A DNA stretch of 23,913 bases from an archaeon (GCA_024276395.1 JAJRXH010000202.1:1-23913), one strand, 5' to 3'; positions 1 through 21,197 are shown, numbered from the stretch's first letter. Notes: generated by a model from the letters alone, not told the origin. Made by a program: numbers and translations.

Positions 1-3000
1 AGCAATACACGCATTCACAGATACACTTGACTTATAACTATACATTTCAAGTAATCACTCCAGCTGGACAGATACTCACCAAAACAATGCTTGTCTTCGT
101 CATTCCACACCAATGGAATCTCTATCTGACTTTAACTACACCACTAGTCGACAGAAATCCAGCTCTGAACATGACCACCATCTATAGAAATACCACCATC
201 CTTAGCTGGAACATAACGTTGATGTTAGATGGAAGCCCATTCTCTGGCAACGTGACTGTAGAACTAGACGGCACGATAATTGCAAGACTGGTCACAGACC
301 AAAACGGCAATGCTTCATTCTCTCACTGGTTTTCAGCCACGGATTCCATAAAAACTTACAATCTTACCATCTATCAAACAGAACGACCGTACGTGAAACA
401 CGTGGAATACATCAAAGTTCTCCAAGATTATAGTTTCAGCATTACTAATGGAAATATCCAAATTAATTCTTCTGTAATCGTGGTCAACGGCACCATTGCC
501 TTGCAAGTACAAATGCTCAGATATGACCCGAATGCTAGTAGTTTCACGAAATCGATAAATGCAACGTATTGGTACTACTACCAAAATGCCACTTTCACGA
601 GCACCAATATCACCATCATTACTAACGCCAATCTCACCTCACCTCTTACTTACTACCTAAACATCAGCACCCCAACCTTTAGCAATGGTACCTATACCTT
701 TTACGTGTTCGCTAACAGCTCAACTGGAATACTTATCGAGGATAATTTCACGGTCACTGTCTTTGCTGAAAACTATACACTTGAACCCAGACCCAGCATC
801 TTATCACCAATCACCATTGATTATGGGGATATTTTTACCCAAACCTTTACCTTAAAATACGAAAACGGCTCGGTTGTCCCTAACAAGATTGTTTTCTTTT
901 TCATCACGAATAAACTCAATTATAACGACATTTTCACGGCAACTACAGACTCACAAGGAAAGTTAACAGTCACGATTCCTACATCCACGCTACCTCAGGG
1001 AGGAAAATATTTCTTTCATCCATTCATCCAAAGATCCTTAAGTCAAGGAACATTTCGAACTTGGAACGGAACGGCACTCGTGTATGAATTACGGATTAGA
1101 CAGATTGTCTTACAGGCATCATTAAGCGATCTCATTACCAATAAAACCTTACCAATGACTCCTTCCCTTCCAGACATCCCACGAAACGTCACGGTTTTCC
1201 AAGTGAATTACCAAGTATCCATTACTAATTTATCATTGAACGAAGCATTTGAGACCCCCATTTTATGGATAAACGATACCACTGACACGAGATTGTCCAT
1301 TGCCATTAATTTAACCAAATCTGGATTGATCAACTCCACGATATTTAACACGTATTTAGATTCGCCATTAGGCAACCATCAACTAACTTTAGGTATCCAA
1401 GGTAGTAACGTAACTACCACCTTGCAATTTAACTTGGTAACTAAATTTAAAATCAAGTCAGCTGCTCTCAATGGAACGGCCAGTGGTTCTTTGACCATCA
1501 TTCAGGGTCAAATTCTCAATGCAACAGTTCGCGTGGTCGCCTTCAATGTAACTGCCGCAAACCAAACATATCTTGCCTCTGGCTCCACGCTAACGTTTAA
1601 TGATCTAATCAATAACAACACGCACTATACCATCACGGTTGAAGCAAATGGCACGGCCAAATTCACCATTGGATCAAATACGTTGAATGTAAGCATATTA
1701 AAAGGATATGGATCAAATAATTGGCTCATTCATCCAAGCTCATTCCCTCATGGAGTTTATAACGTTCTTCGGATGACATTCTCGTTAAAAAACCAGAATG
1801 ATTCCGTCACATCCTTTTTACTCTCATTAACCATTATCATCAAGGAACCCGTGGCGTTAAACATCACGAGCATCCCAAAAATCGTAAAATGGGGAGAATA
1901 TTGGTCCGTTAGTGGTCAAATCCACAATCTCATCACGAATCAGTCCGTTTATGATTCATCTTTCTGGCTCACTCTCCAAAGTTCGGATGGAAAGATCCAA
2001 AGTAGTGGTGTTCCTCAACTAGATGGCTCATTCAACCTAAGCGTGATAATTGACGACAACACGTCCGCCACGCGTAATTTCACCCTCATCCTAAACGTGA
2101 ATCCGACGATCTTTTCTAATCAGACTGCAATGTATCAATTTTCGGTAAATATCACCTTTGGTGCGTTACTACTTCCAGTACCTCAAACCCTCTCCGTGGT
2201 AACTGTAAAAGACACTGACTCGCAAAACATAACTTGGCAGTTACGATATACCCACAACAATTCAGTAATTTCTAACCAACTCATCACGTTACAAATCGTA
2301 CAGTTAAACAAAAATTATACCGCTCACACGGATCAAAATGGAACCGTAACCTTTACCATTCAATGGAATGTTTCTCTTGCTTATCGACAATACACGTTAA
2401 ATGCGATTTATTCTGGAAATGATAGCATTGGAATTCCTACTAGCACCAATAAATCAATAACAACCAGAGTTCAAGGACCCATCTACATCCATGGCGATTA
2501 CGTTGCTGCTTGGAACGGTAATAACTCTGCATATGTCTTGCGAGGACAAAATCTGATGCTGTGGGGTCGAATTCTTTTTGCTAATGGGACCGTCGCTCCA
2601 TTAGGAACCATTGATGTAAACATCAATGTCATATCTAATGCAACAAGTGGTAATGATCTTATTGGAATAGTCAATGGAGCGTTTAATCTTTCAATTCGAC
2701 AGTGGCATTGGACTAACTACTCTTTCCTTGGTAATCTTGTCTTGAATGTTTCCCTACAAAAACTTACAGAGAACACGTTTCCATTCTACATTGCCAACGA
2801 TACGAGACTAAGCATCCTATGCGTGACAAGCATTTCCATTACGAGCGAAATCAATGGAATTACCACCGTTCAAGAAGGAAATATCAATAAAATAGCTAAT
2901 GGAAGTCAAATTAACTTTAGAATCACGATAAGCGAGAACAATCCACGATTAGCGTTACCAATTAACAAGGCAAGCTTGCTTACTGTCAATGCAACGTGGA

Positions 3001-6000
3001 ATGCTAGTACCTTGACCATTTCACGGATCAATTCCACTTGGAACACCCAAAATATGACGGTTTCCAATCAAACAAACATTTATTACGTGCTCCAAGTTAC
3101 CGTGACGTCAACCCTCATGCAAACATGTTACTTAAATGCCACGGTCACATACACGTTCATCACCAAGAATGCACTACAATTGATTCTCCTTAATGTTCCA
3201 GATAAAATTCAACCGGGTAATGCATTATCTTTTCAAGGAGAAATCCGTTATGGGGGTGCTAATGGTGAAATCTATGACCAAAATGCTGCTGTTCGAATTC
3301 AAATCAACGATTCAAGTAATAACATCATTTTTGAAAACACTTACATCATAAGCGGTGCCAATGGACTTTCCGTGTCGGTTTCTATCAGTGCAACTCTAAA
3401 ACCTGGAACCGTTCTAACAATCAAGGGAGAAATTGACCCTAAATCATTACCGTCAAGGTCAAACCTTGCCATCCAACCCACTCCCTTAGAATACGTGACA
3501 GTTGTTCAAAATCCCAATAGCATCACGATGAACATTCTAACAGCTGCCGTAACGACAAACGGTGGCATCAAGTATTATTATGAAAATACAACTCTAAATC
3601 TTAGCTTTTCTGTGACCTTCCCCTATTACACCATCAGCAATTTCAATGAAACCGACTGGGACTTCACTCTCAGCGTGACGGACGTGATGACAAGCATCAA
3701 CTTATATTCATCGACTCCATTTCACAATCTGAGTTTTCTTTACACGCCACCACCAGATAATGGCTACCTGAACATCACGTTAACAGTAAATTTTGCATAT
3801 GGTGCCACATCAACATCCTTCCAAGTCTTCATACTAGTAAAAATCATCACTAGTGCTACATTCGATCTTGTTAGCGTCTTTGATGCAACAGGCATCACGA
3901 AATTAGCAAAACAAGAAAATGCAGTAATCACGCGGAGAGATGCTGGAAATACCATTACCGTAACGCTAAGAACAAGTGATGATTTACTAAATGAATCACT
4001 ATCCACAGTTCCACTCAATTCAACGCCAATGCTTAGCCCAATCACCAACGAACTTACCTTAGGAAGTCTACCAGTTACTACTAACGCGGATGGCACGTTC
4101 TCGTTCAGCATCACGATAAATGCTAATACACCCTTGAACAATTATACCATCACCGTGGCTCTAAGTCATCAAAATTTCACGTTTACCTTTATCTTGGTCA
4201 TTAGGGCCGATATAGAGCTAAATGTCTCCCTCGGGAACAATCATGGTGAATTTTATCTAGATAGAAACAAATTGTACGTGAATATCAGTATCTTAGAACA
4301 ATCATTAGCCGTTGGAAACGTAACCGCTTACCTCGAACAGGGTTCGTGGAACTTGCAGTTAAAATTCTATCTAAATGGTCAAGAGATCATCAAAGACCGA
4401 ACATTAAGATCTAATGGTGATCTCTTTCCAGAATTATACGTGTATGACCTTTCCGTCCTTTCTCCTTCCCAAACAAGCGGCACGCTATCGGTGGAAGTGA
4501 ACCTTCTATGGGATCGTAGTCTGAATCGAAGCCTCAGCATGACACGAGAAATCATCGTCATCAAGGATGTCAACGCAACCTTATTATCCATGTCGCCAAT
4601 CACTAATGCAAAACTGTTAAATGACAATACCATTGCCATTAAACGCGCTGATAATCAGTATCTAATCTTAAATTTCCTAGCTAGCATCGCTGGAGCAACT
4701 CCAACAACTGGATTAAATAACATCAACATCACGATCAAATACCAAAATGTGCCAAAAGTTATTGATTTTAACACTTATCATCGAAATACTGACGTTGATG
4801 GAAAATTTAGCATCTCCATCCTCATGGATCGTACCGTTTCGCTTGGTAACCGATCATTAATCATTTATTGGCAATTAAATGCGACGCAAGCCCTTTTACT
4901 CTTCAACTATACCATCATGGTACAAAGTGATGTCTTCTACCAGTTTACTATCTTGCAAACAACTTTCTTGGAGACACAAATGGATGGCGAAGATTTACCA
5001 TCCACTGAGCTTGCACTCGTTATCCCCTATTCTGGAACGGATTCTTTGAACCTGTCGGAAACCCCATACATCAGATTTTTCTTGAGCACTACAGATGACA
5101 ATGGTTCAATCCTTACCACGAATCAAGGATATGGACGCTATCAGTTCACCATAACCTGGGAATTCACGAATGGAACAGCACCAATTTCCTATGAGATTGG
5201 CACTCTAATCACGGTTACCAACAATGGAGAATACATTCTAAAAATCAACGATCCTTTCCCAAGATCATCCGCAATCATTAAAATTAACGTTACTTTCATC
5301 CCAAGCAACGATTATCTGGGAATTTTATTGCCAAAAACCATTGAAATTACACGAATAACTTATTATGGCCAGTTAAAACTCACTTATCTAGGACGAACCG
5401 CTGCACCATTCGATCCCGCTGATTCTCCGATAAACGATTCAAACATGCAAATTGAGGCATTAGAACCTGTAATTTTCTGGTTCCAAGTGAGTGACCTAGG
5501 ATTTGGTAACCAGTCTCTTCCAGCCGATGTCATCTCTCCAGATTTTTTCCTTAACATCACTATTATAGACGGACAAACTGGACAAATCACGTATCAACGC
5601 CGAATAAAAGATTCATATCTAGATAACTCCATTAATGGGAAATTTTACTTAGATTACAGTGAAAGTGCCAGTGGAACCAGATTTCTGCTAGCGAACGTCA
5701 TTTATAATTTCACTGACAGAGGAAGCATTCATTCAATTTCCTCTACTTTCTTGAACATTAGTTTTACTCTCAAGCCAGCAAGCATTAACATTCTCAACGT
5801 GTTCACGGATGTGCAAACACAACAAGAAATTACCGTGGTCATCATGGGTAATACAGTGAACATCACTGCTTATGTATCACCATTAGATAAGTTCGCACAA
5901 CCCATTTCCTTCCCCATCGTATCTTCACCAGGTTCAGTTATTTTTCAATTTAACAGCACGGTTATTATTAGTAATTCACACGTTACCAGTGCCGCTGCTA

Positions 6001-8069
6001 CATCGATCAAGAAAATCTCCGCCGCCACGTATGCTTTCTCCCTTGTCGTTACCATTGAGAATCAAAGCGCACCTTACACACTAACCATAACCTCGGTCTT
6101 CAAGGTTTCAAAGGAGTTAGCATCCTATGGATTCAAGAACAAGACCAGCGATGCTACTTATTTATCAGTGTACAAGGAGCCAGAAATCAGTATTGGTAGT
6201 TCGTTCATCCTTCAGAAGCTTTCATTCATCTCAACTCAGACTTCAACACGTGGAAATTCTAACACGGTACGAGATACGAAAGATGATAACCTACAATTAC
6301 AAGCATCAGAGACCGTATTAACATCGAAATATGGAGAAGATTACACACTTTCTGGCTTGATTGCTGACAATGGTAATCCATTATCAGGATTTAGAATTGA
6401 AATTACCATTACGAATGCATCTGGACACATCATTCTGAAGAAAGTTACCTATTCAGACAACAACGGCATCTTTCAAGTCGATTTTCTGGTCACCAGAGAT
6501 GCATTCACGACTGAAGGTAATTATACCTTGACAATTAGATTAACTGATTTTGTTAGACCTCCAACGCTTACCGGAATCTTCCAAGTTTTCATTCCTACTT
6601 ACATTGATGTGTATTATACACCTGAATTCGTGACCAATGGTGATGTAGTGACAATTGTAGGGTATCTTAAAGATGACCTAGGAAATAACATCACCTCCTT
6701 GATTCAGCCTGGCGGCATGAGTCTTACAGGCGAGGGTACCATTGACATCAATAACGGACGTTTCATTTACCATTATCATATGCCCACGGAAAGTGCTGAC
6801 AACCAAGTGTTATCTTTCATCTTCAATGGTAACTTGGCTCTTTTCTTGGAGAAAAGCTCACTTGATCTCCCACTTAAAAAACTAACAAATCCAAAAATCG
6901 ATACCGTTTATGGTCCAATATCAATGGTTATCGGACAATCTTCTCAAATAAACGTGCAGATCTCTACTTACGTGCTCGACACCACGACAACTGCATTAAC
7001 TCAGAAAATTTTCTTGAGAAATAGGCCCGTGCAATTACTTCTTGAGAACTATACGCTCTGGCAAGGTCTCCTCAACGGAAGTGAATTCAGCTTGACCATC
7101 ATAATTACCTATCAAGGTGAACATGACTACCTCATAAAAGTCAATGGAGGTAATGTCACCAAATACACGTTGATACCGATAAACGGATCTAAATCTGAAT
7201 TTCAACCAATTGAATTCGTTTTGCGACTGTTAACAACGGAAGGTAATCCCATAAGCAAATTTACCAGAACCATTTCCATTGCACCCATCACTCTGTCAAT
7301 TGACGTCATTCCTTTACCAGCTAATCAACACGACACCTTCCCAACAATTGGTGCCGTGACTTTCACCTCTTTCATTCTGATGGTCCTATCATTCGTCAGT
7401 GCATTGACTTTAACAGTAGAGCCTTGGATTCGTCAACAATTAAAGCTTAGAAGACAGAAGAAACCCGTTTCAGAGCTCAAGAAAGAACTATCTGACCTCT
7501 TAGATAACCTAGTAGTTAGCGATTCAGAGACGGAAGATGAAGAAGGCGCTGATATCACCTCCTTACTTGAATGGGCAATCGAGGAAGAGCAGAAAGAAGC
7601 AACAATGGAAGGAATGGAATCATTAGAAGATTTCTCCTTCGAACTACCACCTATCTTCCAAGAATTACTAGATCTTCTGAAACTCAAGCAATATAAGGAA
7701 TTAGTTGCAAAAATATTAGATGAATCTTTACAATTGATGAGAGAACGTTATAACATCTATCGTCTCTCTGAAACAGAAACCATTCGAGAATGGGAGAAAC
7801 GAGCACTTAACACCCCCATTGGGCAGCAAAAGAGAACTCATGTTGCCCTCTTGTATGATGTTCTTTCCATTGGCAACTATTGGCCGCACCATAAGTGGAA
7901 TCGAACTGATGCAATCGATATTTTCCGAGCCTTTGTTACACTCTACCCAGACCTAGTAGATATACACTCTCTTCCAGAAGAACAAAGACATGGAATTTCC
8001 ATAATTGCCCGCGTAATCTTGAAAATGGGAAAAATTTCACAAAAAGATGAATTTGAGGAATATCTATGA
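1..8069 (+). CDS. Giant cell-surface beta-sandwich-repeat protein (more than 2,680 aa, 5'-partial), sequon-saturated ectodomain, one C-terminal TM helix, 216-aa cytoplasmic tail with DUF4129-like region
   Basis: The frame is open from the window edge: there is no stop between nt 3 and the TTG at 27, so the true N-terminus lies upstream. It ends at TGA 8067-8069. T(D/N)xxGxxxF strand motifs recur (VTDQNGNASF ~nt 291, TTDSQGKLTV ~943, HTDQNGTVTF ~2327, TTNADGTFSF ~4078, NTDVDGKFSI ~4787, YSDNNGIFQV ~6452), as in transthyretin/CarboxypepD_reg-like or Ig-like domains. I hand-counted 19 N-x-S/T sequons in the first ~250 aa versus 1 (NRT) in the last 216 aa. The hydrophobic helix IGAVTFTSFILMVLSFVSALTLTV (nt 7347-7418) is followed by a basic RRQKK stretch. 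The tail has an acidic stretch and RERYNIYRLSETETIREWEKRAL, which resembles the DUF4129 core. Confidence 0.9.
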   Translation, partial: QYTHSQIHLTYNYTFQVITPAGQILTKTMLVFVIPHQWNLYLTLTTPLVDRNPALNMTTIYRNTTILSWNITLMLDGSPFSGNVTVELDGTIIARLVTDQNGNASFSHWFSATDSIKTYNLTIYQTERPYVKHVEYIKVLQDYSFSITNGNIQINSSVIVVNGTIALQVQMLRYDPNASSFTKSINATYWYYYQNATFTSTNITIITNANLTSPLTYYLNISTPTFSNGTYTFYVFANSSTGILIEDNFTVTVFAENYTLEPRPSILSPITIDYGDIFTQTFTLKYENGSVVPNKIVFFFITNKLNYNDIFTATTDSQGKLTVTIPTSTLPQGGKYFFHPFIQRSLSQGTFRTWNGTALVYELRIRQIVLQASLSDLITNKTLPMTPSLPDIPRNVTVFQVNYQVSITNLSLNEAFETPILWINDTTDTRLSIAINLTKSGLINSTIFNTYLDSPLGNHQLTLGIQGSNVTTTLQFNLVTKFKIKSAALNGTASGSLTIIQGQILNATVRVVAFNVTAANQTYLASGSTLTFNDLINNNTHYTITVEANGTAKFTIGSNTLNVSILKGYGSNNWLIHPSSFPHGVYNVLRMTFSLKNQNDSVTSFLLSLTIIIKEPVALNITSIPKIVKWGEYWSVSGQIHNLITNQSVYDSSFWLTLQSSDGKIQSSGVPQLDGSFNLSVIIDDNTSATRNFTLILNVNPTIFSNQTAMYQFSVNITFGALLLPVPQTLSVVTVKDTDSQNITWQLRYTHNNSVISNQLITLQIVQLNKNYTAHTDQNGTVTFTIQWNVSLAYRQYTLNAIYSGNDSIGIPTSTNKSITTRVQGPIYIHGDYVAAWNGNNSAYVLRGQNLMLWGRILFANGTVAPLGTIDVNINVISNATSGNDLIGIVNGAFNLSIRQWHWTNYSFLGNLVLNVSLQKLTENTFPFYIANDTRLSILCVTSISITSEINGITTVQEGNINKIANGSQINFRITISENNPRLALPINKASLLTVNATWNASTLTISRINSTWNTQNMTVSNQTNIYYVLQVTVTSTLMQTCYLNATVTYTFITKNALQLILLNVPDKIQPGNALSFQGEIRYGGANGEIYDQNAAVRIQINDSSNNIIFENTYIISGANGLSVSVSISATLKPGTVLTIKGEIDPKSLPSRSNLAIQPTPLEYVTVVQNPNSITMNILTAAVTTNGGIKYYYENTTLNLSFSVTFPYYTISNFNETDWDFTLSVTDVMTSINLYSSTPFHNLSFLYTPPPDNGYLNITLTVNFAYGATSTSFQVFILVKIITSATFDLVSVFDATGITKLAKQENAVITRRDAGNTITVTLRTSDDLLNESLSTVPLNSTPMLSPITNELTLGSLPVTTNADGTFSFSITINANTPLNNYTITVALSHQNFTFTFILVIRADIELNVSLGNNHGEFYLDRNKLYVNISILEQSLAVGNVTAYLEQGSWNLQLKFYLNGQEIIKDRTLRSNGDLFPELYVYDLSVLSPSQTSGTLSVEVNLLWDRSLNRSLSMTREIIVIKDVNATLLSMSPITNAKLLNDNTIAIKRADNQYLILNFLASIAGATPTTGLNNINITIKYQNVPKVIDFNTYHRNTDVDGKFSISILMDRTVSLGNRSLIIYWQLNATQALLLFNYTIMVQSDVFYQFTILQTTFLETQMDGEDLPSTELALVIPYSGTDSLNLSETPYIRFFLSTTDDNGSILTTNQGYGRYQFTITWEFTNGTAPISYEIGTLITVTNNGEYILKINDPFPRSSAIIKINVTFIPSNDYLGILLPKTIEITRITYYGQLKLTYLGRTAAPFDPADSPINDSNMQIEALEPVIFWFQVSDLGFGNQSLPADVISPDFFLNITIIDGQTGQITYQRRIKDSYLDNSINGKFYLDYSESASGTRFLLANVIYNFTDRGSIHSISSTFLNISFTLKPASINILNVFTDVQTQQEITVVIMGNTVNITAYVSPLDKFAQPISFPIVSSPGSVIFQFNSTVIISNSHVTSAAATSIKKISAATYAFSLVVTIENQSAPYTLTITSVFKVSKELASYGFKNKTSDATYLSVYKEPEISIGSSFILQKLSFISTQTSTRGNSNTVRDTKDDNLQLQASETVLTSKYGEDYTLSGLIADNGNPLSGFRIEITITNASGHIILKKVTYSDNNGIFQVDFLVTRDAFTTEGNYTLTIRLTDFVRPPTLTGIFQVFIPTYIDVYYTPEFVTNGDVVTIVGYLKDDLGNNITSLIQPGGMSLTGEGTIDINNGRFIYHYHMPTESADNQVLSFIFNGNLALFLEKSSLDLPLKKLTNPKIDTVYGPISMVIGQSSQINVQISTYVLDTTTTALTQKIFLRNRPVQLLLENYTLWQGLLNGSEFSLTIIITYQGEHDYLIKVNGGNVTKYTLIPINGSKSEFQPIEFVLRLLTTEGNPISKFTRTISIAPITLSIDVIPLPANQHDTFPTIGAVTFTSFILMVLSFVSALTLTVEPWIRQQLKLRRQKKPVSELKKELSDLLDNLVVSDSETEDEEGADITSLLEWAIEEEQKEATMEGMESLEDFSFELPPIFQELLDLLKLKQYKELVAKILDESLQLMRERYNIYRLSETETIREWEKRALNTPIGQQKRTHVALLYDVLSIGNYWPHHKWNRTDAIDIFRAFVTLYPDLVDIHSLPEEQRHGISIIARVILKMGKISQKDEFEEYL

Positions 8070-9550
8070 GCGTGACACAAGAAAACTTGATCAAAACTGG
8101 CAAGATTGTCCAACATAAATTTCAACAAGTTATCAAAGGGGTTAGTCACTGGTTTGGAGCAAAAAGACTAACTTTAAAGTTCGCAATATTCATTTTACCT
8201 CTCATTTTAGTATTTGCCATCATAATCACGCCTTTTCCCAGTGGATCCACCTTGAATAACGGATGGGATGGCATCAGTCAAGTAGCAAAACACGTAAAAC
8301 AAAATGGTTATGAAATTGCACGGATTTACAATACTCCGATGGAACTGTCAACGTATAAAACTCCTGGAATCCTTATCATTCAACATATTGCGCGTTCATA
8401 TACCACTGACGAAATTCAACATCTCTTTCAATTAGTTCAAAATGGATGGAGCTTATTCATTGCAGAGGAAATCAATAGCGAAATCACTCGGGCCTTTAAC
8501 ATTGGTATTGAAGCATTCATGATTCGAGAAGAAAGTGCATTCGTCGATGACCCGATACAACCGTTACTAATACCTACGACTCAGATGAATCTCTCACAAT
8601 CAGTAAAAATCTTCTTATCTGGAGTTCGTCCCCTAATCTTATCAGATTTTCCGTGGCACTACGAACCAATCATCGCATCTACCGATCAGAGTTGGATTGA
8701 CATTGACCAAAATGGCGAATATGACCCAGAAATAGATGAAAGCGGTCCGTTCAACATTGGAATCCGTTTCAGCATTGGGCAAGGAAGAATCGTGTTTCTA
8801 AGTGACTTTACATGGCTTCAGAATCAAGTATTCTTTCAATTCGATAATGCACTGTTTTTTGATAAACTCATTTCTTGGCTGGGTGAGGCGATAACCAACA
8901 CGCTTGGAACCAAGCCAATCATCTATTTTGACGAATCGCACTTGAGTTGGACTACTCTCAAGCCTCAAACCATTCTCCATGCAATCTCACAGGCACAGTC
9001 ACTCATCCTTCAGAACCCACTCATGATAATAATCTACTTTGTTTTGATTGCACCTCTCATTTTCTATCAGTTCTCAACACTCGTTGATCGTTACATCGAA
9101 TTAAAAGCAAAGTTGCTGAAGGAGGTCAAAGGTGAGTCAACTTTCCATCAAAAAAGAGAAGAACTCAGAATGGCCATTCAGAATCCAGTAACCTTATTCG
9201 AGATAGTTTATTACAAAATTCTACTCAAATGGCTCAGTATGGACCCCTACTTCAATTTTAATTGGCTCCTTAGTGATCCAGCTCTAGAACGAGTGGAAAC
9301 ATTGATGTTTCTCGATCAATATCTAACACGGCTGTATGAGACAAGCAAGGAGGAATTCGAGAAGAATCCTGAGATTACTATTAGAAATCTTCAAGAATTG
9401 AAGAAGAAGACGCATAACCTTTTCAAATTTGCTTATAGACACGAAACAATAGGAAAAAATGCCGCTTCGATATCTGAATATGAAAACTCAAGTAAGTTCT
9501 GTTATCAACTTGCAATATTAGTTAGCAAGGAAAAGACAAACCTTTTATAA
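8066..9550 (+). CDS. DUF4350-like membrane protein (N-terminal TM, globular domain, second TM, helical cytoplasmic tail)
   Basis: The ATG overlaps the upstream stop (ATGA, nt 8066-8069). TM segments are FAIFILPLILVFAIIITPF and LMIIIYFVLIAPLIFYQF. The stretches GILIIQHIARSY...NGWSLFIAEE and GQGRIVFLSDFTWLQNQ resemble the DUF4350/GldG-type fold. A position immediately upstream of MoxR/DUF58 is typical for this family. The family call comes from memory of motifs only. Confidence 0.6.
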   Translation: MSVTQENLIKTGKIVQHKFQQVIKGVSHWFGAKRLTLKFAIFILPLILVFAIIITPFPSGSTLNNGWDGISQVAKHVKQNGYEIARIYNTPMELSTYKTPGILIIQHIARSYTTDEIQHLFQLVQNGWSLFIAEEINSEITRAFNIGIEAFMIREESAFVDDPIQPLLIPTTQMNLSQSVKIFLSGVRPLILSDFPWHYEPIIASTDQSWIDIDQNGEYDPEIDESGPFNIGIRFSIGQGRIVFLSDFTWLQNQVFFQFDNALFFDKLISWLGEAITNTLGTKPIIYFDESHLSWTTLKPQTILHAISQAQSLILQNPLMIIIYFVLIAPLIFYQFSTLVDRYIELKAKLLKEVKGESTFHQKREELRMAIQNPVTLFEIVYYKILLKWLSMDPYFNFNWLLSDPALERVETLMFLDQYLTRLYETSKEEFEKNPEITIRNLQELKKKTHNLFKFAYRHETIGKNAASISEYENSSKFCYQLAILVSKEKTNLL

Positions 9551-12150: not shown

Positions 12151-12153
12151 GAA

Positions 12154-13950: not shown

Positions 13951-14102
13951 CATACCAGCCATTTGCGAATATCAGGGATGTTGTCTTTATCATCAGTACT
14001 CTAATTTCCTTAAGCTTCATAATACTCTTCATTTCTTTCAAATGGCGGACTGAGTCCAAGAAGTTAGAAGCAATCTACGACTTAACACCAATATACGAAA
14101 AA

Positions 14103-16691
14103 ATGGTCAAAGAACGGACAGATAATCAACAAAAAATCATCAAAACGGAAAATGATGAGTTTTCCATCCAAATTACAGTAGGTAAAACGTTTAGGGATCC
14201 TAATACAGGCTTAAATATCGTACTCTGTCCCAAGTGTTTTAACAAGATGTCGTTGTTCCTATGGCAAGGAACAAAAAGATGCTTGAGTTGTGGTCAAGGA
14301 ATTGGAAAAATTGAAGAACTAGAAATTAACTACACGCAACCACAAGTAGGTACCATAATTGAAAATGAATTGCTACGTTCCCAATGGGTAGAGTGCCCGG
14401 TCTGTGGATATAATAACACGCTAACTGCCATTGAAACAAATAAGATATGTTCTTCGTGCTCTGTCATCATTGGAAGCCTTCTCAACCCATCTACTGGTGA
14501 ACTCATCACGCTTGACATCGAAGAGATACTCATTGAGTACGAAAATAAATTTCAGGATGAGGAGAAAACCAGTAATTTACCGTTGCTCCAAATCAGTAAT
14601 GACGAAAAAATACTCCAAGATAGTTTGGCAGAAGGACTATTAGGGTTCTGGGAGGAAAGATGGCAAGTTAAATGCCTGTATTGTGGGTACATGAATGATG
14701 CGTCTTTGGTTAACAATTTCACTAATTTCAAGTGTGAACATTGCTTGCAACCAATTAAATCCCTCAAGTTCGACGAGAAGAGCCCAATCATGAACATTGA
14801 ATTAACTCCCATTGAATGTCCTCAATGCTCATTGGTGTATGAAAATAAAGAGAAATTACTAGAACTCATCGAACAAGAACTCACTTGCCAATGTGAATTC
14901 TCATTATTTGAGTATCTGCGTGATCCCGTCAAGGAAAAGGAATTTTATTCGAGAATGGTAGAATTACAAGTTAAATCCATGGAAGAAATTGAGTCAGATA
15001 GCTCAGAGAGAAAAGATGAAGAAAAATCAAACAAGCGCTTGTGTCCTTCGTGTTTCTCTCTCTATGATCTTGATGTCTTCGAATGCCCCACCTGTGATCT
15101 TTATTTAGATCCTGAAATGGCCAAGGCAGAAGAGCTAGATCCTTACGCCAAAGATTGGGCTTATCCATATACCGTTGATGAATTAGAAAAACTCATTGAA
15201 ATCCCGCCGTATGTGGCACGGAAGATTTATTGCGCAACTTGTGACGCTTACCATGAAAAATACAAGCTTCTCGCGGATAACGTGTTTTCATGTCCCCTTG
15301 ATCTTACTGATCTCACAAAACACAAGAGTTATTGTCAAAATTGCTCAATACAGTATCCCACTAATTACAATTTCTGCATGGAATGCGGGAAACAACTTGA
15401 AATCTTAGAAGTCGAAGTGTACATACCGCCACGGCTAAAAGAAACCACAGCTCCACCCACACCAGAACACGAGCCCAGTCCAATGACGATAAGAATTTTT
15501 TGTCTTGATTGCCAAGAAGAACACGAATATGACCTTGTACCACGATATTGCAAGAAATGTGGAGGGAAAATCGAGAAGAGTATGCATTTTTGTCCCCAAT
15601 GTCAAGTTTATTATCCGGTAACCTACAAGTTCTGTCGAATATGTGGCAAAGAACTAACAGAAAAAGTTCTTCCACAAGCAGATCGAATTACCATTACCGA
15701 AAAAGCCGCGATTTATTGTCATCACTGTCGAAAAAGTCAAACCTATACTTTTGTCCCAGCCGCTTGTTACAATTGTTTCATGCCGTTAGAAGTGAATGAA
15801 CTAAGATATTGTCAAAAATGCAAGATTAATTACCCACGTTTCTATAAATACTGCCAAGAATGTGGAAAACCACTCTCCTTCTCTAGAATTTCCCTACCAA
15901 AGCCATCAAAGTTAAAGAGCGTCCCCATTTATTGTAGTCCATGCCAAGAAACATATTTCTATCAGCATCCAGCAAAATATTGCAAGAAATGTGGACAATA
16001 CAACCGATTACAACCGTTGAGACGATGCCCACAATGTTTAGCCATTCAATCTCCTAATTTTAAATATTGCAAGAATTGTAAAGCGACGACAATAACTTGG
16101 ATTCCAAACCCCTTTGAAGTCAACCCGTCTCTATTAGAGGCATTCACTAAAATTGAACTGGAGAGTACACAACAAACTTCAATGGAAGAACTACAAACAA
16201 TAGAGCATCAAATTCCTCCAACCACCTCTCAACAAATAGAAGTTCCACGACTTACTCCTAGTAGTAGCTCATCTGCTTCAGCAATTCCAATCACTCAAGT
16301 TGACAAAAACCAATCTAAAAAACAAAAGATCGAAGCACTCCCAAGGGATGTTAAGAGTGATGACCAAAAAATCACTGAAAAAGGATTGATTGAAGAACAA
16401 GTAAAGCAATTTTTGGTAGATTATTTGAGAAAAAACAAATGGAAGTTAATCGATCCCGCCAAAATAGGCTTCAAAGTTGATATCATTGCTTCCAAAAGGA
16501 AAAAATTAATCGGCATTCAAGTCTCTAGCAATCCTACTACGGCGATGATGGATGAGCTGCTTTTCACGGGTTTTCCGGGAAAGTGGGCAATCTTTGTATT
16601 AAATAATGATGATGGGCAAGATCTTGGAAGAAATACCTTCCACGTGAAAACGTTGGACGCCTTGAGAAAGATCATCGATTCACTCGTGTAA
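14103..16691 (+). CDS. Multi-zinc-ribbon protein (about 13 CxxC...CxxC units) with Ser/Pro-rich linker and a C-terminal ~100-aa restriction-endonuclease-fold-like domain
   Basis: Cys pairs run from C42 (nt 14226) to C659 (nt 16079). Eleven are complete Cys4 units and two are degenerate (CPQC...CQC and CATC...C). Units such as FCPQCQVYYPVTYKFCRICGKEL, YCQNCSIQYPTNYNFCMECGKQL and YCQKCKINYPRFYKYCQECGKPL match the zinc_ribbon_2/DZR pattern. The start is uncertain: there is no Shine-Dalgarno before ATG 14103, and the frame stays open upstream to nt 13944 (see findings). Confidence 0.85.
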   Translation: MVKERTDNQQKIIKTENDEFSIQITVGKTFRDPNTGLNIVLCPKCFNKMSLFLWQGTKRCLSCGQGIGKIEELEINYTQPQVGTIIENELLRSQWVECPVCGYNNTLTAIETNKICSSCSVIIGSLLNPSTGELITLDIEEILIEYENKFQDEEKTSNLPLLQISNDEKILQDSLAEGLLGFWEERWQVKCLYCGYMNDASLVNNFTNFKCEHCLQPIKSLKFDEKSPIMNIELTPIECPQCSLVYENKEKLLELIEQELTCQCEFSLFEYLRDPVKEKEFYSRMVELQVKSMEEIESDSSERKDEEKSNKRLCPSCFSLYDLDVFECPTCDLYLDPEMAKAEELDPYAKDWAYPYTVDELEKLIEIPPYVARKIYCATCDAYHEKYKLLADNVFSCPLDLTDLTKHKSYCQNCSIQYPTNYNFCMECGKQLEILEVEVYIPPRLKETTAPPTPEHEPSPMTIRIFCLDCQEEHEYDLVPRYCKKCGGKIEKSMHFCPQCQVYYPVTYKFCRICGKELTEKVLPQADRITITEKAAIYCHHCRKSQTYTFVPAACYNCFMPLEVNELRYCQKCKINYPRFYKYCQECGKPLSFSRISLPKPSKLKSVPIYCSPCQETYFYQHPAKYCKKCGQYNRLQPLRRCPQCLAIQSPNFKYCKNCKATTITWIPNPFEVNPSLLEAFTKIELESTQQTSMEELQTIEHQIPPTTSQQIEVPRLTPSSSSSASAIPITQVDKNQSKKQKIEALPRDVKSDDQKITEKGLIEEQVKQFLVDYLRKNKWKLIDPAKIGFKVDIIASKRKKLIGIQVSSNPTTAMMDELLFTGFPGKWAIFVLNNDDGQDLGRNTFHVKTLDALRKIIDSLV
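15231..16079 (+). repeat. Protein-level tandem array: four units, each pairing a type-A zinc ribbon (I(Y/F)CxxC...YCKKCG) with a type-B zinc ribbon ((Y/F)CxxCxxxYPxx(Y/F)K(Y/F)CxxCGKxL)
   Basis: First Cys positions of the A units are residues 377, 467, 539 and 611. First Cys positions of the B units are 411, 497, 570 and 642. Units 2-4 are spaced 72-73 residues apart (about 216 nt). The DNA copies are diverged, so this is not a recent duplication. Confidence 0.75.
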
Positions 16692-16704
16692 CTGGTGAGA
16701 AGAT

Positions 16705-18381
16705 ATGGACGAACGTAAAAAGATGAAAATATGGATATTCATCATCTTGATATGCTCTAGTTCAATCATGCTAACCCATTTTTCTATAATGATGTCAACA
16801 CAGAATCGATACTTGCTTAATTTCAAGCAAAATGAAATGATAACAAGTCACTCTCATAAAAAAGATTATAGTCATTTAGTATCTCAAAAAACTCCCTTTC
16901 ATCAAAAAACGCCATTCATTAAGCAAGTTCAGGAGATCGGTACACTCTCTGTACATCCTTATCATCTCGAGGCCATTAATGATAGCCTACAAATTGAATC
17001 GAATTTTATCTTTAATGCGACATTAGATCGAACAATCTATGGAAGTGGTAGTATCATTCACATTAAAGGGTATCTAGGTTACGCTAACAATACGCCCATT
17101 GCCGGTAATGAAGTCAACATCACCTTTCTTGATGCAGTTAACAACAAGTTGACTAGCACCACGGAAAACACGCGTTTGGACGGAAGTTGGAACGTGGATT
17201 ATCAACTTTCTTCCTCAACTCCCACTGGAGGCTATCACGTAGAAGTTTGGACGAAAGTAAATGAATCGATCTTGTCCCTATCATTAACCTATACTGTTGT
17301 CGCACGCAGTTCAATTACTTTCATCTCGAATTCAACTCTTCCTAATCCACCCATTCACTATTTCCCCTTTTCAATCATCGTCAAGTTGAGTTCTCAAGAA
17401 ATAAGCGATGCTAAAATTATATTCACGACTGACGAAGGTATTACATGGAAACAAGCAACTCTAGTAAGTTCCACAGAAGACCCAGCAACATTCACCGCAT
17501 TGCTAGGACCTTTTAACAAGAGCATAAATAAATTACAATGGTTTGCTGTCATCATTGATAGTGATGGAAAAATAAAGGAATCTCAAATACAGGTAATCTC
17601 TTTTCGTCCGTTTAACGCTTCCATCACGATAGATATCACCTCAACTCCCTACACGCACGTGACTCACGTTTGGAATGTAACAATCAATACTAATTTACCA
17701 GAAGATTACTACTACATAAAAGTGAAAGCAGCCTTTCTTGGTAATGAGCAAGAGTTTTACTTGCCTACTTGGAAAGTAAGAGCTGGTTTTTATCAGTTCT
17801 CTTTCAACACGACAATGACTGGAACATGGACTTTTACTGCGGAATTACGATCGACATTCAATAATTCAATTTTAAAACAACAATCAGAAACCACCTATCT
17901 GTCCTTAATGGACATTCATCCACCTCGAATCCAAAATGTCGAGTATGATAAAAGTAGCATCTTCAATGATTTGCCAGTTGTTGTTACCATCATCATCGAA
18001 GAAAATCATACTTACCATGATTTACTAGTTTTCGTGAAATACCGTCAAGGTACCATTGAAGAAGGTCCTACTACCCAATGGTCAGTCAAAACCCTATTAT
18101 CGCCTGGACAGAATAGCCAAGATACCGTGAAAATTCAATGGGAAATCCCAGTTACATTAAAAGAGGGAGATTTATTTCAATTTCAAGTGATAGCAATTGA
18201 TGGATTCAATAACACTGCATCTTCAAGACTTTATACCATTTCTTATCCCTTAACAAGGGAAGAATCCACTAATTTTCCCTTCTACATGTTCTTAATCACA
18301 TTGATGATGTTTTTTTTCAATAAGTTCAAAAGAACTCGAATGCTGAAAAATGAGAAGATTCTTAATCAAGGAGATGTATGA
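16705..18381 (+). CDS. Type-I membrane surface protein with Ig-like/beta-sandwich domains, N-terminal signal/anchor and C-terminal TM helix
   Basis: A GGTGAG Shine-Dalgarno precedes the ATG. The N-terminal hydrophobic segment is IWIFIILICSSSIMLTHF and the C-terminal TM is FPFYMFLITLMMFFF, followed by the basic tail NKFKRTRMLK. The ectodomain has more than 10 N-x-S/T sequons and a GNEVNITF...RLDGSWNVDYQL motif of the same type as in the giant protein. Confidence 0.85.
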   Translation: MDERKKMKIWIFIILICSSSIMLTHFSIMMSTQNRYLLNFKQNEMITSHSHKKDYSHLVSQKTPFHQKTPFIKQVQEIGTLSVHPYHLEAINDSLQIESNFIFNATLDRTIYGSGSIIHIKGYLGYANNTPIAGNEVNITFLDAVNNKLTSTTENTRLDGSWNVDYQLSSSTPTGGYHVEVWTKVNESILSLSLTYTVVARSSITFISNSTLPNPPIHYFPFSIIVKLSSQEISDAKIIFTTDEGITWKQATLVSSTEDPATFTALLGPFNKSINKLQWFAVIIDSDGKIKESQIQVISFRPFNASITIDITSTPYTHVTHVWNVTINTNLPEDYYYIKVKAAFLGNEQEFYLPTWKVRAGFYQFSFNTTMTGTWTFTAELRSTFNNSILKQQSETTYLSLMDIHPPRIQNVEYDKSSIFNDLPVVVTIIIEENHTYHDLLVFVKYRQGTIEEGPTTQWSVKTLLSPGQNSQDTVKIQWEIPVTLKEGDLFQFQVIAIDGFNNTASSRLYTISYPLTREESTNFPFYMFLITLMMFFFNKFKRTRMLKNEKILNQGDV

Positions 18382-18821
18382 CCATGGGAAACGTGATAAA
18401 TTTAAATTTGCATTCCTACTTTCAAGATGTCTCTAATAAATGGCTGGAACTACTTAACACGTTGAGCTTGCAAGTACCTAACCACCCACAACTAAATCAC
18501 CTGATGACTCTTTATGAAGATCTCGAACAAATTAAGTTCGAGGTTCAGTATCTTCCATCACCCTCATCATCACTCCTAAAAAGACAAAAAAATATGTATG
18601 AAGTCCTCATGCTATTAAGTGCCGTGTTATGTCAAAAAATCCTTAGGATCATCGTGAACTTACATGACCAAGTAAGTCTTCATCAAAAATACCTAGAAGT
18701 GGAAGAAATTGAAGAAGTTACAAGACTCATAAGACAGGTAGAGCAAGTAAATCGAATGCTCCTAAGACTCCTCCAAGGTGAAGATCTCAACACAACCCTC
18801 ATCAAGAAAATGGAACAATAA
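18378..18821 (+). CDS. Small all-helical/coiled-coil cytoplasmic protein (147 aa), unknown family, possibly an ESCRT-associated adaptor
   Basis: The ATG overlaps the upstream stop (ATGA at 18378-18381) and is preceded by AGGAGAT. Heptad-like Leu/Glu/Gln-rich sequence is present (EVEEIEEVTRLIRQVEQVNRMLLRLLQ). The TAA at 18819-18821 is in the same frame as the next gene. No family was recognised by eye. Confidence 0.65.
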   Translation: MTMGNVINLNLHSYFQDVSNKWLELLNTLSLQVPNHPQLNHLMTLYEDLEQIKFEVQYLPSPSSSLLKRQKNMYEVLMLLSAVLCQKILRIIVNLHDQVSLHQKYLEVEEIEEVTRLIRQVEQVNRMLLRLLQGEDLNTTLIKKMEQ

Positions 18822-18833
18822 CATGCTAAAGCA

Positions 18834-19388
18834 TTGGAACAATTAAAGACAAAGCTGCTAGGAATTGAAGAAGATGTCGAGGAAATACGGATTCTCGAAC
18901 AGCAACAAAAAATACATAAGGGAAGATTTCTCGGAAAGAAGAAATTCATCAAGCAATTAGGCGACATCATTCTTCAGGAATCTGATGAACTCTCAAAGAA
19001 AAGTGGCGGTATTGTTGAATTACAGAGGTTGTATCGCCACTTAAAAAGAAAATATGACATTGATATGGATGTTACAGATGTACTCGATGCTTGCGAATTT
19101 CTGTTAGCAAAAAACGTCATCGATGCCATCATCGAATTACCAGGTTCAGTTATGAAAATCATCTCTTTTTCTCCGATGGCACTTGATGCTGAAATACGAC
19201 AATTACTATTTTTAGCAAGTTCCCACGGCGGCGTGCTAACTAGAGAAGAAATCACGCTAAGCACGGACTGGGATCAAGCTCGGATAGATCGTCTCATGGA
19301 TCTGATGGAACGAAGAGGTTTTGCCATACGAGAAAAATCCTTCGAGGGAGAAAAGTGGTACTTCCCAGCATTCTATGAAAATAAGTAA
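18834..19388 (+). CDS. vps22: ESCRT-II Vps22/Vps36-like protein (EAP30 domain, tandem winged helices)
   Basis: KKSGGIVELQRLYRHLKRK...DVTDVLDACEFLLAKNVIDAIIELPGSVMKIISFSP forms the first winged helix. SHGGVLTREEITLSTDWDQARIDRLMDLMERRGFAIREKSFEGEKWYFPAFY forms the second. Both follow the pattern I recall for eukaryotic Vps22/SNF8: GG(I/L)xxLxxL, V(S/T)xxD(L/V)xxA, VTxxE(I)...W...RA...L, and aromatic-aromatic-x-P-A-(L/F) at the C-terminus. The only usable start is TTG 18834. There is no in-frame ATG until codon ~77 and no Shine-Dalgarno. Confidence 0.78.
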   Translation: MEQLKTKLLGIEEDVEEIRILEQQQKIHKGRFLGKKKFIKQLGDIILQESDELSKKSGGIVELQRLYRHLKRKYDIDMDVTDVLDACEFLLAKNVIDAIIELPGSVMKIISFSPMALDAEIRQLLFLASSHGGVLTREEITLSTDWDQARIDRLMDLMERRGFAIREKSFEGEKWYFPAFYENK

Positions 19389-19433
19389 CCAATGAAATTA
19401 AGCAAAAATAAATAAGGATTAAGGTGTCTGTTA

Positions 19434-20084
19434 ATGTCAAAGCAATTAGAACTAAAGGATGTTATCAAGCCTATCAGTGGAGCAGCAAGCAAAAAATCTC
19501 TGTTTCGGAAAAAAAAGGTCATCTCATCACAACGAATCCGAGTAGGTGAAGAATCAATCATCACGCGCATCACATTTCAAAATGACAAAAATGCCCCAGA
19601 TTTCTTTCTCGTGACGCCTCATGAACACGCTGTCATTATTATGGATGGTGTACCATTCGAAATAAAACAAGAAGGAGCATTCGAAATCATCAAAAAGAAG
19701 AAATGGCTTCAAATCGAGATTATATGGCTAAAAAAGAATGAAATAAACATAAAATGGGGCTCTGGAGCCTTCATTACAAGCGACAGAAAAGAATTCGGAT
19801 GTTATGGCATTGCAAGAGTTCAAATTCTCCAACCTAGGCATTTCATGCTGAGAATTTTAGGTGGTGGAACTTTCTCATTTACTGACGAAGATCTTCGAAA
19901 CTTCATCCGAGCGGATCTCCTCAACACCCTTCGTAACAGTTTTTCAAGGTTTTCCATCGCCCAAATTCGGGCACAGAATAAATTACTTCAAATTCAAGTT
20001 AAGGCCAACCTCTCCCCAACCCTACGACGTTGGGGACTTGAATTGCTGGATTTTCAAATAATAGGGTTTAAATTCCAAGAATAA
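19434..20084 (+). CDS. SPFH-superfamily protein of the YdjI/Band_7_1 (COG4260-like) type, lacking the usual C-terminal zinc ribbon
   Basis: An AAGGTG Shine-Dalgarno lies about 8 nt upstream. The following match my recollection of the Band_7_1 profile: VTPHEHAVIIMDGVPFEIKQEGAFEI, IEIIWLKKNEINIKWGSGAFITSD, GCYGIARVQILQPRHFMLRILGGGTFSFTDEDLRNFIRADLLNTL and WGLELLDFQIIGFKF. That profile reads (E)xxAV..dG...pG.y.l; vyFv..re..n.kWGT; lrafG.y...v.dP..F; GiEl..f.i..i. Confidence 0.62.
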   Translation: MSKQLELKDVIKPISGAASKKSLFRKKKVISSQRIRVGEESIITRITFQNDKNAPDFFLVTPHEHAVIIMDGVPFEIKQEGAFEIIKKKKWLQIEIIWLKKNEINIKWGSGAFITSDRKEFGCYGIARVQILQPRHFMLRILGGGTFSFTDEDLRNFIRADLLNTLRNSFSRFSIAQIRAQNKLLQIQVKANLSPTLRRWGLELLDFQIIGFKFQE

Positions 20085-20141
20085 TAAAACAGATCCTCAT
20101 GATGAATGATAAATCAATAGATTTACTAGGTGACTTGAGCA

Positions 20142-21197
20142 ATGGCCGAACATAATCAAGACATTGATGAAAAAATCATGTTAAACGATGATCTACTAGA
20201 AATTAAAAGACTCCTTAAAAAAATACCAAGGTCACTTTTCTTGTTGTTAGAGAACGTGATCATCTTCATTAGCGTGTTGTTCTTACCTTTATTTCAAATG
20301 ATATATAACATCCAAGGTACAATTATTCTTGTTTCACTGTCAGGTAAAATTCTCGGGGGATTTCCCTATATCATTGCAATCATCTCTACCTACTTGATCT
20401 TCTTGTGTAGTATATATGAAATCAAGCGAAGAAAACTCAAGAATGTCAGACAAGACCGTAAACGACGTCACTTGATTGTCAACTCCTTGGATTCTCTTGC
20501 AAGCTATTCGCTGGTAATGACAATTAGCCACGTTTTACTTCTCATCTTCCTCATTCTCTTCTATCATTCCTACCTAATTAATTATGATAAAACAATAGCT
20601 AACGACCCATTGAGATTCATTCCACCACAAGTGTTATATCATAATTTACCAGATCCAACGCCATCCAGTTATTCTTGGTTCTTGAAGATATATATTGGTA
20701 GCTACATCTTAATTTCAGCTGCCTTGTTATCTTTTTTCCACGAAATTATAGTTTTTTTCCGGATTCGGAAAATAAAGAAGAAAATCTTGCCAACCATTGA
20801 TTCACTGCTGGATTTGGAGAAAAAAGCAACACCAACCGCTGAACACGAAGAAAAATCTGACATGGAATCAATTACTTATGAGCTAGAGGACGACATGGAA
20901 AAAATATCAATAGATTCTATCATTTCTACAGAAAAACAAGAACCATTACTGACATCATCAGATTCCGAGATGAGCACCACGATAGAGGCATCTTCAACAA
21001 TGGAACAATCTCAAGAAGCTATGACAGCAGCTGCATCACCATTCAGAGCAATAAAATCTTCTATTGAACCTCCAATCCGTTCAACCGGATATCTTAGGAA
21101 TTTTAAACCTCCAAAATTGAGACCGTGCAGTAATTGTAACACTAAAATTCCAATGTCTGCGAAATTTTGCTACGAATGCGGTATCCCTGCATCTTAA
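20142..21197 (+). CDS. Multi-pass membrane protein with acidic/Ser-rich linker and C-terminal zinc ribbon
   Basis: An AGGTGA Shine-Dalgarno lies 8 nt upstream. There are about 5-6 hydrophobic helices (e.g. LFLLLENVIIFISVLFLPLF, YIIAIISTYLIFLCSIY, VMTISHVLLLIFLILFY, YILISAALLSFFHEIIVFF). The C-terminal CSNCNTKIPMSAKFCYECGIP is the same zinc_ribbon_2 pattern as in the 862-aa protein. Confidence 0.82.
   Translation: MAEHNQDIDEKIMLNDDLLEIKRLLKKIPRSLFLLLENVIIFISVLFLPLFQMIYNIQGTIILVSLSGKILGGFPYIIAIISTYLIFLCSIYEIKRRKLKNVRQDRKRRHLIVNSLDSLASYSLVMTISHVLLLIFLILFYHSYLINYDKTIANDPLRFIPPQVLYHNLPDPTPSSYSWFLKIYIGSYILISAALLSFFHEIIVFFRIRKIKKKILPTIDSLLDLEKKATPTAEHEEKSDMESITYELEDDMEKISIDSIISTEKQEPLLTSSDSEMSTTIEASSTMEQSQEAMTAAASPFRAIKSSIEPPIRSTGYLRNFKPPKLRPCSNCNTKIPMSAKFCYECGIPAS

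Follow-up and report, generated by a model that had tools for sequence, protein, structure and literature searches.

The 23,913-nucleotide (nt) stretch of DNA analyzed here, hereafter the window, is essentially a whole contig (JAJRXH010000202.1, positions 1-23913) of GCA_024276395.1, a metagenome-assembled genome of an Asgard archaeon; one protein of the window is recorded on an NCBI contig of 23,914 bp. The plus strand of the window is filled, from nt 3 to nt 21197, by ten large co-directional open reading frames (ORFs), named A, B, C, D, E, F, G, H+I, J and K. [quoted passage not shown] Our statement on the composition and evolution of the block is made with high confidence. From synteny with genomes labelled Heimdallarchaeota or Hodarchaeota, we infer that the host lineage is related to Heimdallarchaeia. 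All ortholog comparisons were made with contig 52 of GCA_054014235.1 (L001/L030), hereafter the relative, and Pfam matches quoted as passing lie above the gathering thresholds. The genes of the block and their predicted products are:

3-8069, plus strand: gene A, giant surface protein truncated at its 5' end (at least 2688 aa here), with an ectodomain (3-7355), a single TM helix (7356-7412) and a 218-aa tail (7413-8066).
8066-9550, plus strand: gene B, DUF4350 protein of the arCOG01314 type (DUF4350 E 3.3e-11, 44.2 bits, cutoff 30.4).
9620-10633, plus strand: gene C, MoxR-type AAA+ ATPase (AAA_3 E 1.2e-64, 216 bits; AAA_lid_2 E 2e-22, 79 bits).
10678-12150, plus strand: gene D, DUF58 protein, a MoxR partner like those with a von Willebrand factor A (vWA) domain (DUF58 E 4e-17, 62.6 bits; VWA_2 weak).
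12154-13950, plus strand: gene E, polytopic membrane protein with ~11 TM helices (11 hydrophobic segments).
13947-16691, plus strand: gene F, TM-anchored multi-zinc-ribbon protein, re-annotated (frame open from 13944).
16705-18381, plus strand: gene G, type-I surface glycoprotein (MG2 E 4.3e-11, 43.5 bits, cutoff 32.8).
18378-19388, plus strand: gene H+I, Vps22/SNF8-like protein (EAP30 E 3.9e-9, 37 bits, cutoff 26.8).
19434-20084, plus strand: gene J, soluble SPFH/Band-7 protein (Band_7 E 8.8e-10, 39.3 bits, cutoff 23.6).
20142-21197, plus strand: gene K, membrane protein with four TM helices (Zn_Ribbon_1 E 3.4e-5 at aa 329-348).

The ORF map and the gap sizes bear out the co-directional, tightly packed, operon-like arrangement that had been noticed at first sight. 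Counting H and I separately, successive genes are spaced by -4, 69, 44, 3, 152, 13, -4, 12, 45 and 57 nt. Both of the ATGA start/stop overlaps proposed originally are present, A/B at 8066 and G/H at 18378. Shine-Dalgarno (SD)-like motifs, resembling GGAGG or GGTGA, were found 5' of B, C, E, G, H, J and K, and those of B, E and H indeed lie within the preceding gene, as had been said of several such sites. The number of genes had to be corrected from eleven to ten, since the ORFs of 147 and 184 aa are one Vps22-like gene split by a TAA codon.

All ten genes are found in the same order in the relative, despite saturated divergence at synonymous sites (proportion of differences, pS, 0.71-0.95), and all have been under long-term purifying selection. 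Amino-acid identity to the relative is 49% for A, 62% for B, 89% for C, 81% for D, 52% for E and 44% for F, and, on the right side of the block, 45% for G, 62% for H, 72% for I, 67% for J and 33% for K. Synteny breaks one gene past the block, where a leucine-rich repeat (LRR) gene of the window is missing from the relative and the following genes differ.

The identity of H+I as a Vps22 homolog is solid, as judged from sequence profiles and from the modelled fold, and the initial Vps22-like call is upheld. Besides the Pfam EAP30 match, the profile of the family retrieved SNF8 (1.6e-24), yeast Vps22 (2.2e-10) and VPS36 (6e-6) among PDB sequences. An AlphaFold2 (AF2) model of the intact ortholog (pLDDT 86, pTM 0.79) was searched with Foldseek, and its best PDB matches were human and yeast Vps22 (3cuq_A, 2zme_A and 1u5t_A; E 1.9e-7 to 5e-6, target-normalised TM-score 0.60-0.62), with VPS36 and then Vps25 ranking lower. 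The predicted architecture begins with a three-helix domain at the N-terminus and continues with a helix and two winged-helix domains. The N-terminal ~110 residues, modelled as three long helices, have no match among PDB sequences; they are consistent with the steadiness-box architecture of Asgard Vps22, in which Vps22 is fused to such a helical box (asCOG cog.002769; Makarova 2024, PMC10936438).

In the window, H (18378-18821, 147 aa) and I (18834-19388, 184 aa) lie in one frame and are parted by the TAA at 18819-18821 alone. The relative has AAA (Lys) at this position and a single intact ORF (P0002). The TTG at 18834, the supposed start of I, aligns to an ordinary Leu codon and is not preceded by an SD-like motif. 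The right-hand pair might then be a decaying duplicate, already without function or being lost from this genome: the in-frame stop and the downstream part lacking an SD-like motif or conserved start would fit, as would a J protein that lacks its C-terminal ~75 aa and a K protein only 33% identical to its ortholog. However, H and I are each under strong purifying selection (proportion of nonsynonymous differences, pN, 0.17-0.19; pS 0.79-0.95), which suggests that the stop is recent, polymorphic or an assembly error. It amounts to a single A-to-T change, which may have arisen recently by mutation, may vary among strains or may be an error of assembly or consensus. Selection is equally strong when J is included (pN 0.17-0.19, pS 0.71-0.95), and H, I and J are as conserved as the methyltransferase flanking the block (62-72% against 65%). 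Moreover, the Vps22-like gene is intact in the relative, and the tail of J is missing from both genomes, so that its loss is old and tolerated. We thus consider decay of the pair very unlikely. The position of the TAA coincides exactly with the hinge that joins the N-terminal helical domain to the Vps22 core.

For gene J, the SPFH assignment held under further searches: in addition to Band_7, it matches Band_7_1 (E 4.5e-7, 30.1 bits, cutoff 24), and the profile of its family matches the SPFH domain of flotillin-2 (3.2e-6). A hydropathy scan found no TM or other hydrophobic segment in J, and so no N-terminal membrane anchor. From the alignment, J also lacks the C-terminal coiled-coil tail of ~75 aa that all orthologs carry, a loss common to the window and the relative. 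The orthologous SPFH proteins (e.g., L015:10908-11795) end in a coiled coil and a tail (…FLNGKISEEKYKEL…) that by eye is SHOCT-like and that is missing from J.

The association of the two genes extends well beyond the window. A genome scan yielded 27 loci, and in all 19 with the full ~330-aa Vps22-like architecture (L002-L020; genomes labelled Heimdallarchaeota, Hodarchaeota, Promethearchaeota or Hermodarchaeota) the Vps22-like gene is directly followed, within a few nt, by an SPFH gene with a phmmer E of about 1e-33 to J. None of the eight loci with an ordinary Vps22 of 219-250 aa has an SPFH neighbour; these are found in UEV-Vps28-Vps22 clusters (L021-L028; Jordarchaeia, Freyarchaeota, Wukongarchaeum, Thermoproteota, Hodarchaeota and uncultured-archaeon records). 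A metagenome scan from the SPFH side recovered six loci, and a Vps22-like gene is present in the five with upstream sequence (L031-L035), the sixth (L036) being cut upstream. The adjacency recurs in two loci from the window's own lineage (L029 and L040). The Vps22-like and SPFH genes are, then, adjacent in every locus of the full-architecture type that we recovered.

In the ancestral context (e.g., L015:7308-17626), the genes for GINS51, eIF2alpha, (Nop10) and a GNAT protein precede the Vps22-like and SPFH genes, and a PCI/zinc-ribbon protein, a small zinc-ribbon protein, a ThiF-type E1, a ubiquitin-like (Ubl) protein, an unassigned 262-aa protein and an E2 follow. The PCI/winged-helix protein is 582-589 aa long, with C-terminal zinc ribbons and a weak E3_UFM1_ligase match (E 0.0085). 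This order is kept between genomes whose eIF2alpha proteins are just 42% identical. GCA_054014235.1 carries both the block (contig 52) and a locus of the ancestral type (contig 164, L029), in which the gene order EAP30 (339 aa), Band_7_1 (279 aa) and PCI is set in an eIF2alpha-Nop10-GNAT context, with E1 and Ubl genes nearby. Orthology between L029 and the Hod loci extends over E1, Ubl, GINS, eIF2alpha, GNAT, PCI and the gene for the small zinc-ribbon protein. The operon recurs in L040, from a third genome of this lineage (GCA_027018025.1), where the three central genes overlap and an Arf-like GTPase gene comes after them. For both H+I and J of the window, identity is 28-34%, whether they are compared with the ancestral-type copies or with those of the Hod loci. 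The window therefore carries a divergent paralogous pair, whose two genes were duplicated together and are still adjacent. This joint duplication, with adjacency kept, is the strongest argument that the Vps22-like and SPFH proteins work as a unit.

The paralogous copy appears confined to very few genomes. In a word-indexed search of 5.8e9 protein clusters, I matched nothing beyond its own contig and P0002, a protein 72% identical to it. An exhaustive hidden Markov model (HMM) search of 1.84e9 representatives gave 96 EAP30 relatives, of which only about ten extend over the N-terminal helical domain as well; the paralog clade gained no additional member. We found no description of the Vps22-like/SPFH pairing in the ESCRT literature that we searched: Hatano 2022 (PMC9192718) does not mention SPFH, and the SPFH-ESCRT links in Makarova 2024 (PMC10936438) are those of methanogen "adaptin" systems and bacterial PspA-YdjI only. 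The strict linkage of Vps22-like and SPFH genes (together with the PCI/zinc-ribbon gene) beside ubiquitin-like conjugation genes, in Hod/Heimdall-labelled Asgard genomes and the window's lineage, is apparently unreported; it is the more general result, and it lies outside the window.

The left half of the block is of a kind already described. A complex for secretion or membrane remodelling was proposed for archaeal operons centred on arCOG01314, a family of DUF4350 proteins bearing a signal peptide and, at the C-terminus, a TM helix (Makarova, Galperin & Koonin 2015, PMC5898192). In addition, these operons encode a MoxR ATPase of COG0714 and a vWA protein, together with various multi-TM proteins and surface proteins of Ig-like or S-layer-like type. 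By their predicted domains and topology, genes A-E fit this arCOG01314-MoxR-vWA module feature by feature, and G fits as well. The original prediction had not recognised the combination as a described system; this does not hold for the left half, which is a known arCOG01314 neighbourhood. The additions on the right are not listed in PMC5898192. The earlier MoxR, DUF58 and DUF4350 calls all pass the Pfam thresholds. Protein B has an N-terminal signal anchor (aa 39-57), an ectodomain, a C-terminal TM helix (aa 319-337) and a cytoplasmic tail of ~155 aa, and D has an N-terminal TM hairpin, with its helices within aa 53-93. No Pfam or NCBIfam model matched E, whose C-terminal third is 60-77% identical to its ortholog, compared to 52% for the whole protein.

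The contig boundary falls within gene A, whose ortholog in the relative has 3718 aa. The predicted ectodomain is a beta-sandwich with weak MG2 and MG4 matches, and it is rich in NxS/T sequons (103, against 45.5 +/- 5.6 in shuffled sequences). With the excess also seen in G (13, against 6.9 +/- 2.3), this agrees with the expectation of giant, putatively glycosylated surface proteins. The cytoplasmic tail of A (aa 2471-2688) is acidic and predicted to be helical, and it is 75% identical to the ortholog, compared to about 45% for the ectodomain (24-62% in individual blocks); the corresponding pN values are 0.167 and 0.377. Because the tail is far more conserved than the ectodomain, it likely has a conserved cytoplasmic partner. 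This supports the earlier idea that cytoplasmic tails of surface proteins are engaged by the machinery, without its DUF4129 component: hmmscan of the window and of the relative gave no DUF4129 match at E<=10 in the tails of A or B, although the filters of HMMER may hide very weak matches. A VPS28 C-terminal match in the A tail looked attractive given that Vps28-C binds ESCRT-II; it was seen in the ortholog only, at a non-significant E of 0.12, was not reproduced, and was rejected.

Gene F required re-annotation. The 152-nt gap between E and the annotated ATG of F at 14103, suspected from the start of being coding, is an open frame: the 52 codons 5' of this ATG encode a TM helix and then KWRTESKK, conserved in the relative, with pN 0.25 and pS 0.86. 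The extension contains no ATG, GTG or TTG, and there is no SD-like motif upstream of ATG 14103. Overlapping the TAG stop of E (as ATAG) is an ATA at 13947, and a conserved AGGAGG is located 8 nt 5' of this ATA. The probable start of F is thus this near-cognate ATA, the annotated ATG being internal. The motif AGGAGGTTTAA(G/A)CAATAG, with a strong SD and then the ATA over the stop of E, is conserved at 13933-13950 of the window and at ~9831-9848 of L030; at the head of the extension, it suggests a near-cognate start or termination-reinitiation. Protein F is most likely membrane-anchored and translationally coupled to E. We also considered E and F as one gene expressed through a -1 frameshift. 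This was rejected: a TAA directly precedes 13944 in the frame of F, there is no slippery heptamer in the frame of E, and the C-terminus and stop of E are conserved. The ATA start is preferred over the frameshift because the conserved AGGAGG followed by ATA is the more economical explanation.

The zinc ribbons of F, predicted to be cytoplasmic, match DZR (71 bits), DZR_2 and Zn_ribbon_15; its 24 CxxC knuckles correspond to about 12-13 ribbons, against the thirteen originally counted. A C-terminal domain of ~110 aa (window ~16360-16691) follows a long Ser/Gln-rich linker. This domain carries a motif (...FKVDIIASKRKKLIGIQVSS...) that by eye resembles a degenerate PD-(D/E)xK/Mrr-like core and has no Pfam match. 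The word-indexed search found F in two contigs only. In G, an N-terminal signal anchor is the sole segment flagged by the hydropathy scan, and a C-terminal hydrophobic stretch (…FPFYMFLITLMMFFFNKFKRTRM…) with a short basic tail was read by eye from the translation. Genes F and G probably belong to the DUF4350-MoxR-DUF58/vWA envelope module. Protein K, with four TM helices, a long low-complexity linker and a C-terminal Zn_Ribbon_1, is the zinc-ribbon membrane protein that had been predicted. We also asked whether F or K is homologous to partners of the ancestral pair, the PCI/zinc-ribbon (c3) and small zinc-ribbon (c7) proteins; family HMMs gave no match better than E 0.1, and the idea was rejected.

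The lineage-restricted, fast-evolving genes F, G and K and the neighbouring LRR gene resemble variable islands, and the MoxR protein has a secondary match to bpMoxR (E 6e-13), so that the block could be imagined as a MoxR-vWA-type conflict or anti-virus system with membrane effectors and sensors. However, AAA_3 is by far the best ATPase model for this protein, and PADLOC gave no significant match in ten proteins (B-G, P0002, J, K and the LRR protein), its sole entry being a marginal IetA for the MoxR protein (E 0.002, no matched stretch). Family scans revealed no beta-propeller, nuclease, protease or other effector domain, and scans of viral contigs returned no relatives. An anti-virus role is, in our view, highly improbable.

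A rival reading concerns the junction of the two halves. A DUF4350-MoxR-DUF58 surface module and a Vps22-like/SPFH/zinc-ribbon module could simply be two independent systems side by side, sharing a strand and perhaps a transcript, with no interaction. We take this seriously and judge it rather unlikely. The pair never neighbours the MoxR module outside this narrow lineage, its ancestral context is quite different (E1, E2, Ubl), and the published arCOG01314 neighbourhoods (PMC5898192) list no ESCRT or SPFH component. Furthermore, in the relative the G/H+I, H+I/J and J/K gaps have widened to about 60-105 nt. On the other hand, tight packing runs across the proposed boundary in the window, with the E/F (ATAG) and G/H (ATGA) overlaps and the 13-nt F-G gap; gene order has been kept over saturated synonymous divergence, with synteny ending just past the block; and F and K occur in this block only, which leaves the right half without an independent existence elsewhere.

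We return to the lineage-specific composite operon, on which several observations weigh negatively. The junction of MoxR module and pair was found in the window contig and in L030 only. MoxR, DUF58, DUF4350, F, G and K were not found beside the pair in any of the ~26 other loci (L002-L020, L029, L031-L035 and L040), either by direct search or, for L029 and L040, by Pfam scans of the called genes; a metagenome scan with D and scans of viral sequences returned nothing. The joined system of the original prediction is thus largely unsupported as a conserved arrangement, its halves being adjacent in just the window and one relative; the prediction as a whole is partly supported, the assembly or turnover machine that it proposed being still hypothetical. 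The conserved order may also partly be residual synteny, as the opposite-strand methyltransferase is syntenic too. Among the individual genes, the Vps22-like ORF is not intact, J has lost the coiled coil needed for SPFH cages, and K is the fastest-evolving of the block (33% identity, pN 0.457). The tail of A contains no domain recognised by a Pfam scan at E<=10 or by a profile search against the PDB, and its single-sequence AF2 model is unusable (pLDDT 42). Finally, the Pfam scan of the 24-kb window revealed no ESCRT-III, Vps25, Vps4, Vps36, ESCRT-I or ubiquitin-like gene.

Functional coupling of the two halves is plausible given the translational-coupling signals and the strongly conserved cytoplasmic tail of A; as a whole, we offer the mechanism tentatively and think it unlikely to hold in full. 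MoxR-DUF58, with B and E, would assemble or maintain A and G, the giant surface glycoproteins, in line with what was proposed for arCOG01314 systems. The soluble J may be held at the membrane by K and/or F, by analogy with YdjI, which is held by YdjG/YdjH. J and its membrane partners would then form a platform where the Vps22-like adaptor engages the conserved tail of A, coupling surface proteins to clustering, turnover or remodelling of the ESCRT-III type, with ESCRT-III possibly encoded elsewhere. In its most specific form, which we regard as quite unlikely, the pair would be a two-component membrane-sorting unit of the Hod/Heimdall-labelled Asgard genomes and their relatives, in which an SPFH platform brings in the ESCRT-II-like adaptor; it would ancestrally have acted on Ubl-tagged cargo, its duplicate having been rewired to the conserved cytoplasmic tail of a ~3700-aa glycoprotein matured by MoxR-DUF58-DUF4350.

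Such a sorting unit would be a prokaryotic case of ESCRT-II sorting with cargo specificity, tied to an AAA+ assembly system. In Asgard archaea, the partners of ESCRT-II, a signature complex of eukaryotes, are poorly defined. The pair extends the SPFH-ESCRT link to ESCRT-II in Asgard archaea and offers a concrete, testable Vps22-SPFH interaction, and the window shows that it can be duplicated and attached to another membrane system, the MoxR surface-protein module. If the attachment is functional, the tail of A becomes a candidate cargo for an ESCRT-II-like adaptor of archaea; otherwise, two known kinds of module would simply be juxtaposed in this lineage.

The remainder of the window, past the block, contains three further ORFs:

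21261-22409, minus strand: LRR protein of 382 aa, between K and the methyltransferase.
22466-23272, minus strand: S-adenosylmethionine (SAM) methyltransferase, 65% identical to that of the relative and syntenic with it.
23623-23913, plus strand: partial ORF for a small hydrophobic membrane protein, running off the contig end.

The LRR gene has no counterpart in the syntenic region of the relative and represents a local insertion. The partial ORF shows no homology to its positional counterpart in L030 and marks the end of synteny. The window contains no Rfam family and no tRNA, and a trivial tandem repeat is its only repeat.

Several known systems bear comparison with the block. The bifidobacterial PFNA cluster is said to combine an FN3 surface protein, a MoxR-type AAA ATPase, DUF58 and a transglutaminase. 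It differs in being bacterial and in reportedly having a kinase and a transglutaminase/DUF4129 protein, and it is not known to include ESCRT or SPFH genes. The likeness lies in a large repetitive surface protein encoded together with MoxR and DUF58 (PMC8430577).

The closest match for the left half is the arCOG01314 module. B is a DUF4350 protein with a signal anchor and a C-terminal TM helix, the MoxR protein C and the DUF58 protein D, as its vWA-class partner, are adjacent, and the Ig-like (MG2-type) surface proteins A and G and the polytopic E lie in the same predicted operon. In contrast to the described operons, A is exceptionally large (about 3700 aa), with a long conserved cytoplasmic tail, and the window continues into a TM multi-zinc-ribbon protein and a trio of Vps22-like, SPFH and zinc-ribbon-TM proteins, not listed in PMC5898192.

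On the right side, the Asgard ubiquitin-ESCRT clusters (Hatano 2022, PMC9192718; Makarova 2024, PMC10936438) share with the block a Vps22/SNF8 homolog, here with an extra N-terminal helical domain, and the ancestral copy of H+I adjoins E1, E2 and Ubl genes; unlike them, the window copy has no ubiquitin, ESCRT-I, Vps25, ESCRT-III or Vps4 neighbour. The "Meth_adaptin" ESCRT systems (PMC10936438), which include an SPFH-coiled-coil-zinc-ribbon protein, are alike in their contextual link between SPFH, zinc-ribbon and ESCRT-related winged-helix proteins in archaea. These methanogen systems are, however, built on Vps4, ESCRT-III and adaptin-appendage proteins, none of which is found in the window.

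Lastly, the soluble SPFH protein YdjI of B. subtilis reaches the membrane via YdjG/H and then recruits the ESCRT-III homolog PspA (PMC8581546; bioRxiv 10.64898/2026.02.06.704340). Compared to this PspA-YdjG/H/I (SamGHI) system, the partner in the window is ESCRT-II-like rather than ESCRT-III/PspA, no PspA/Snf7 domain is present in the window, and K and F gave generic zinc-ribbon matches only, in searches that were not aimed at YdjG/H. The likeness is that J, too, is a predicted soluble SPFH protein without an anchor, encoded beside integral membrane proteins, with an SPFH protein functionally tied to the ESCRT superfamily, putatively so in the window, and a zinc-binding motif in the module. 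We see in this an analogy of architecture rather than membership in the same system.

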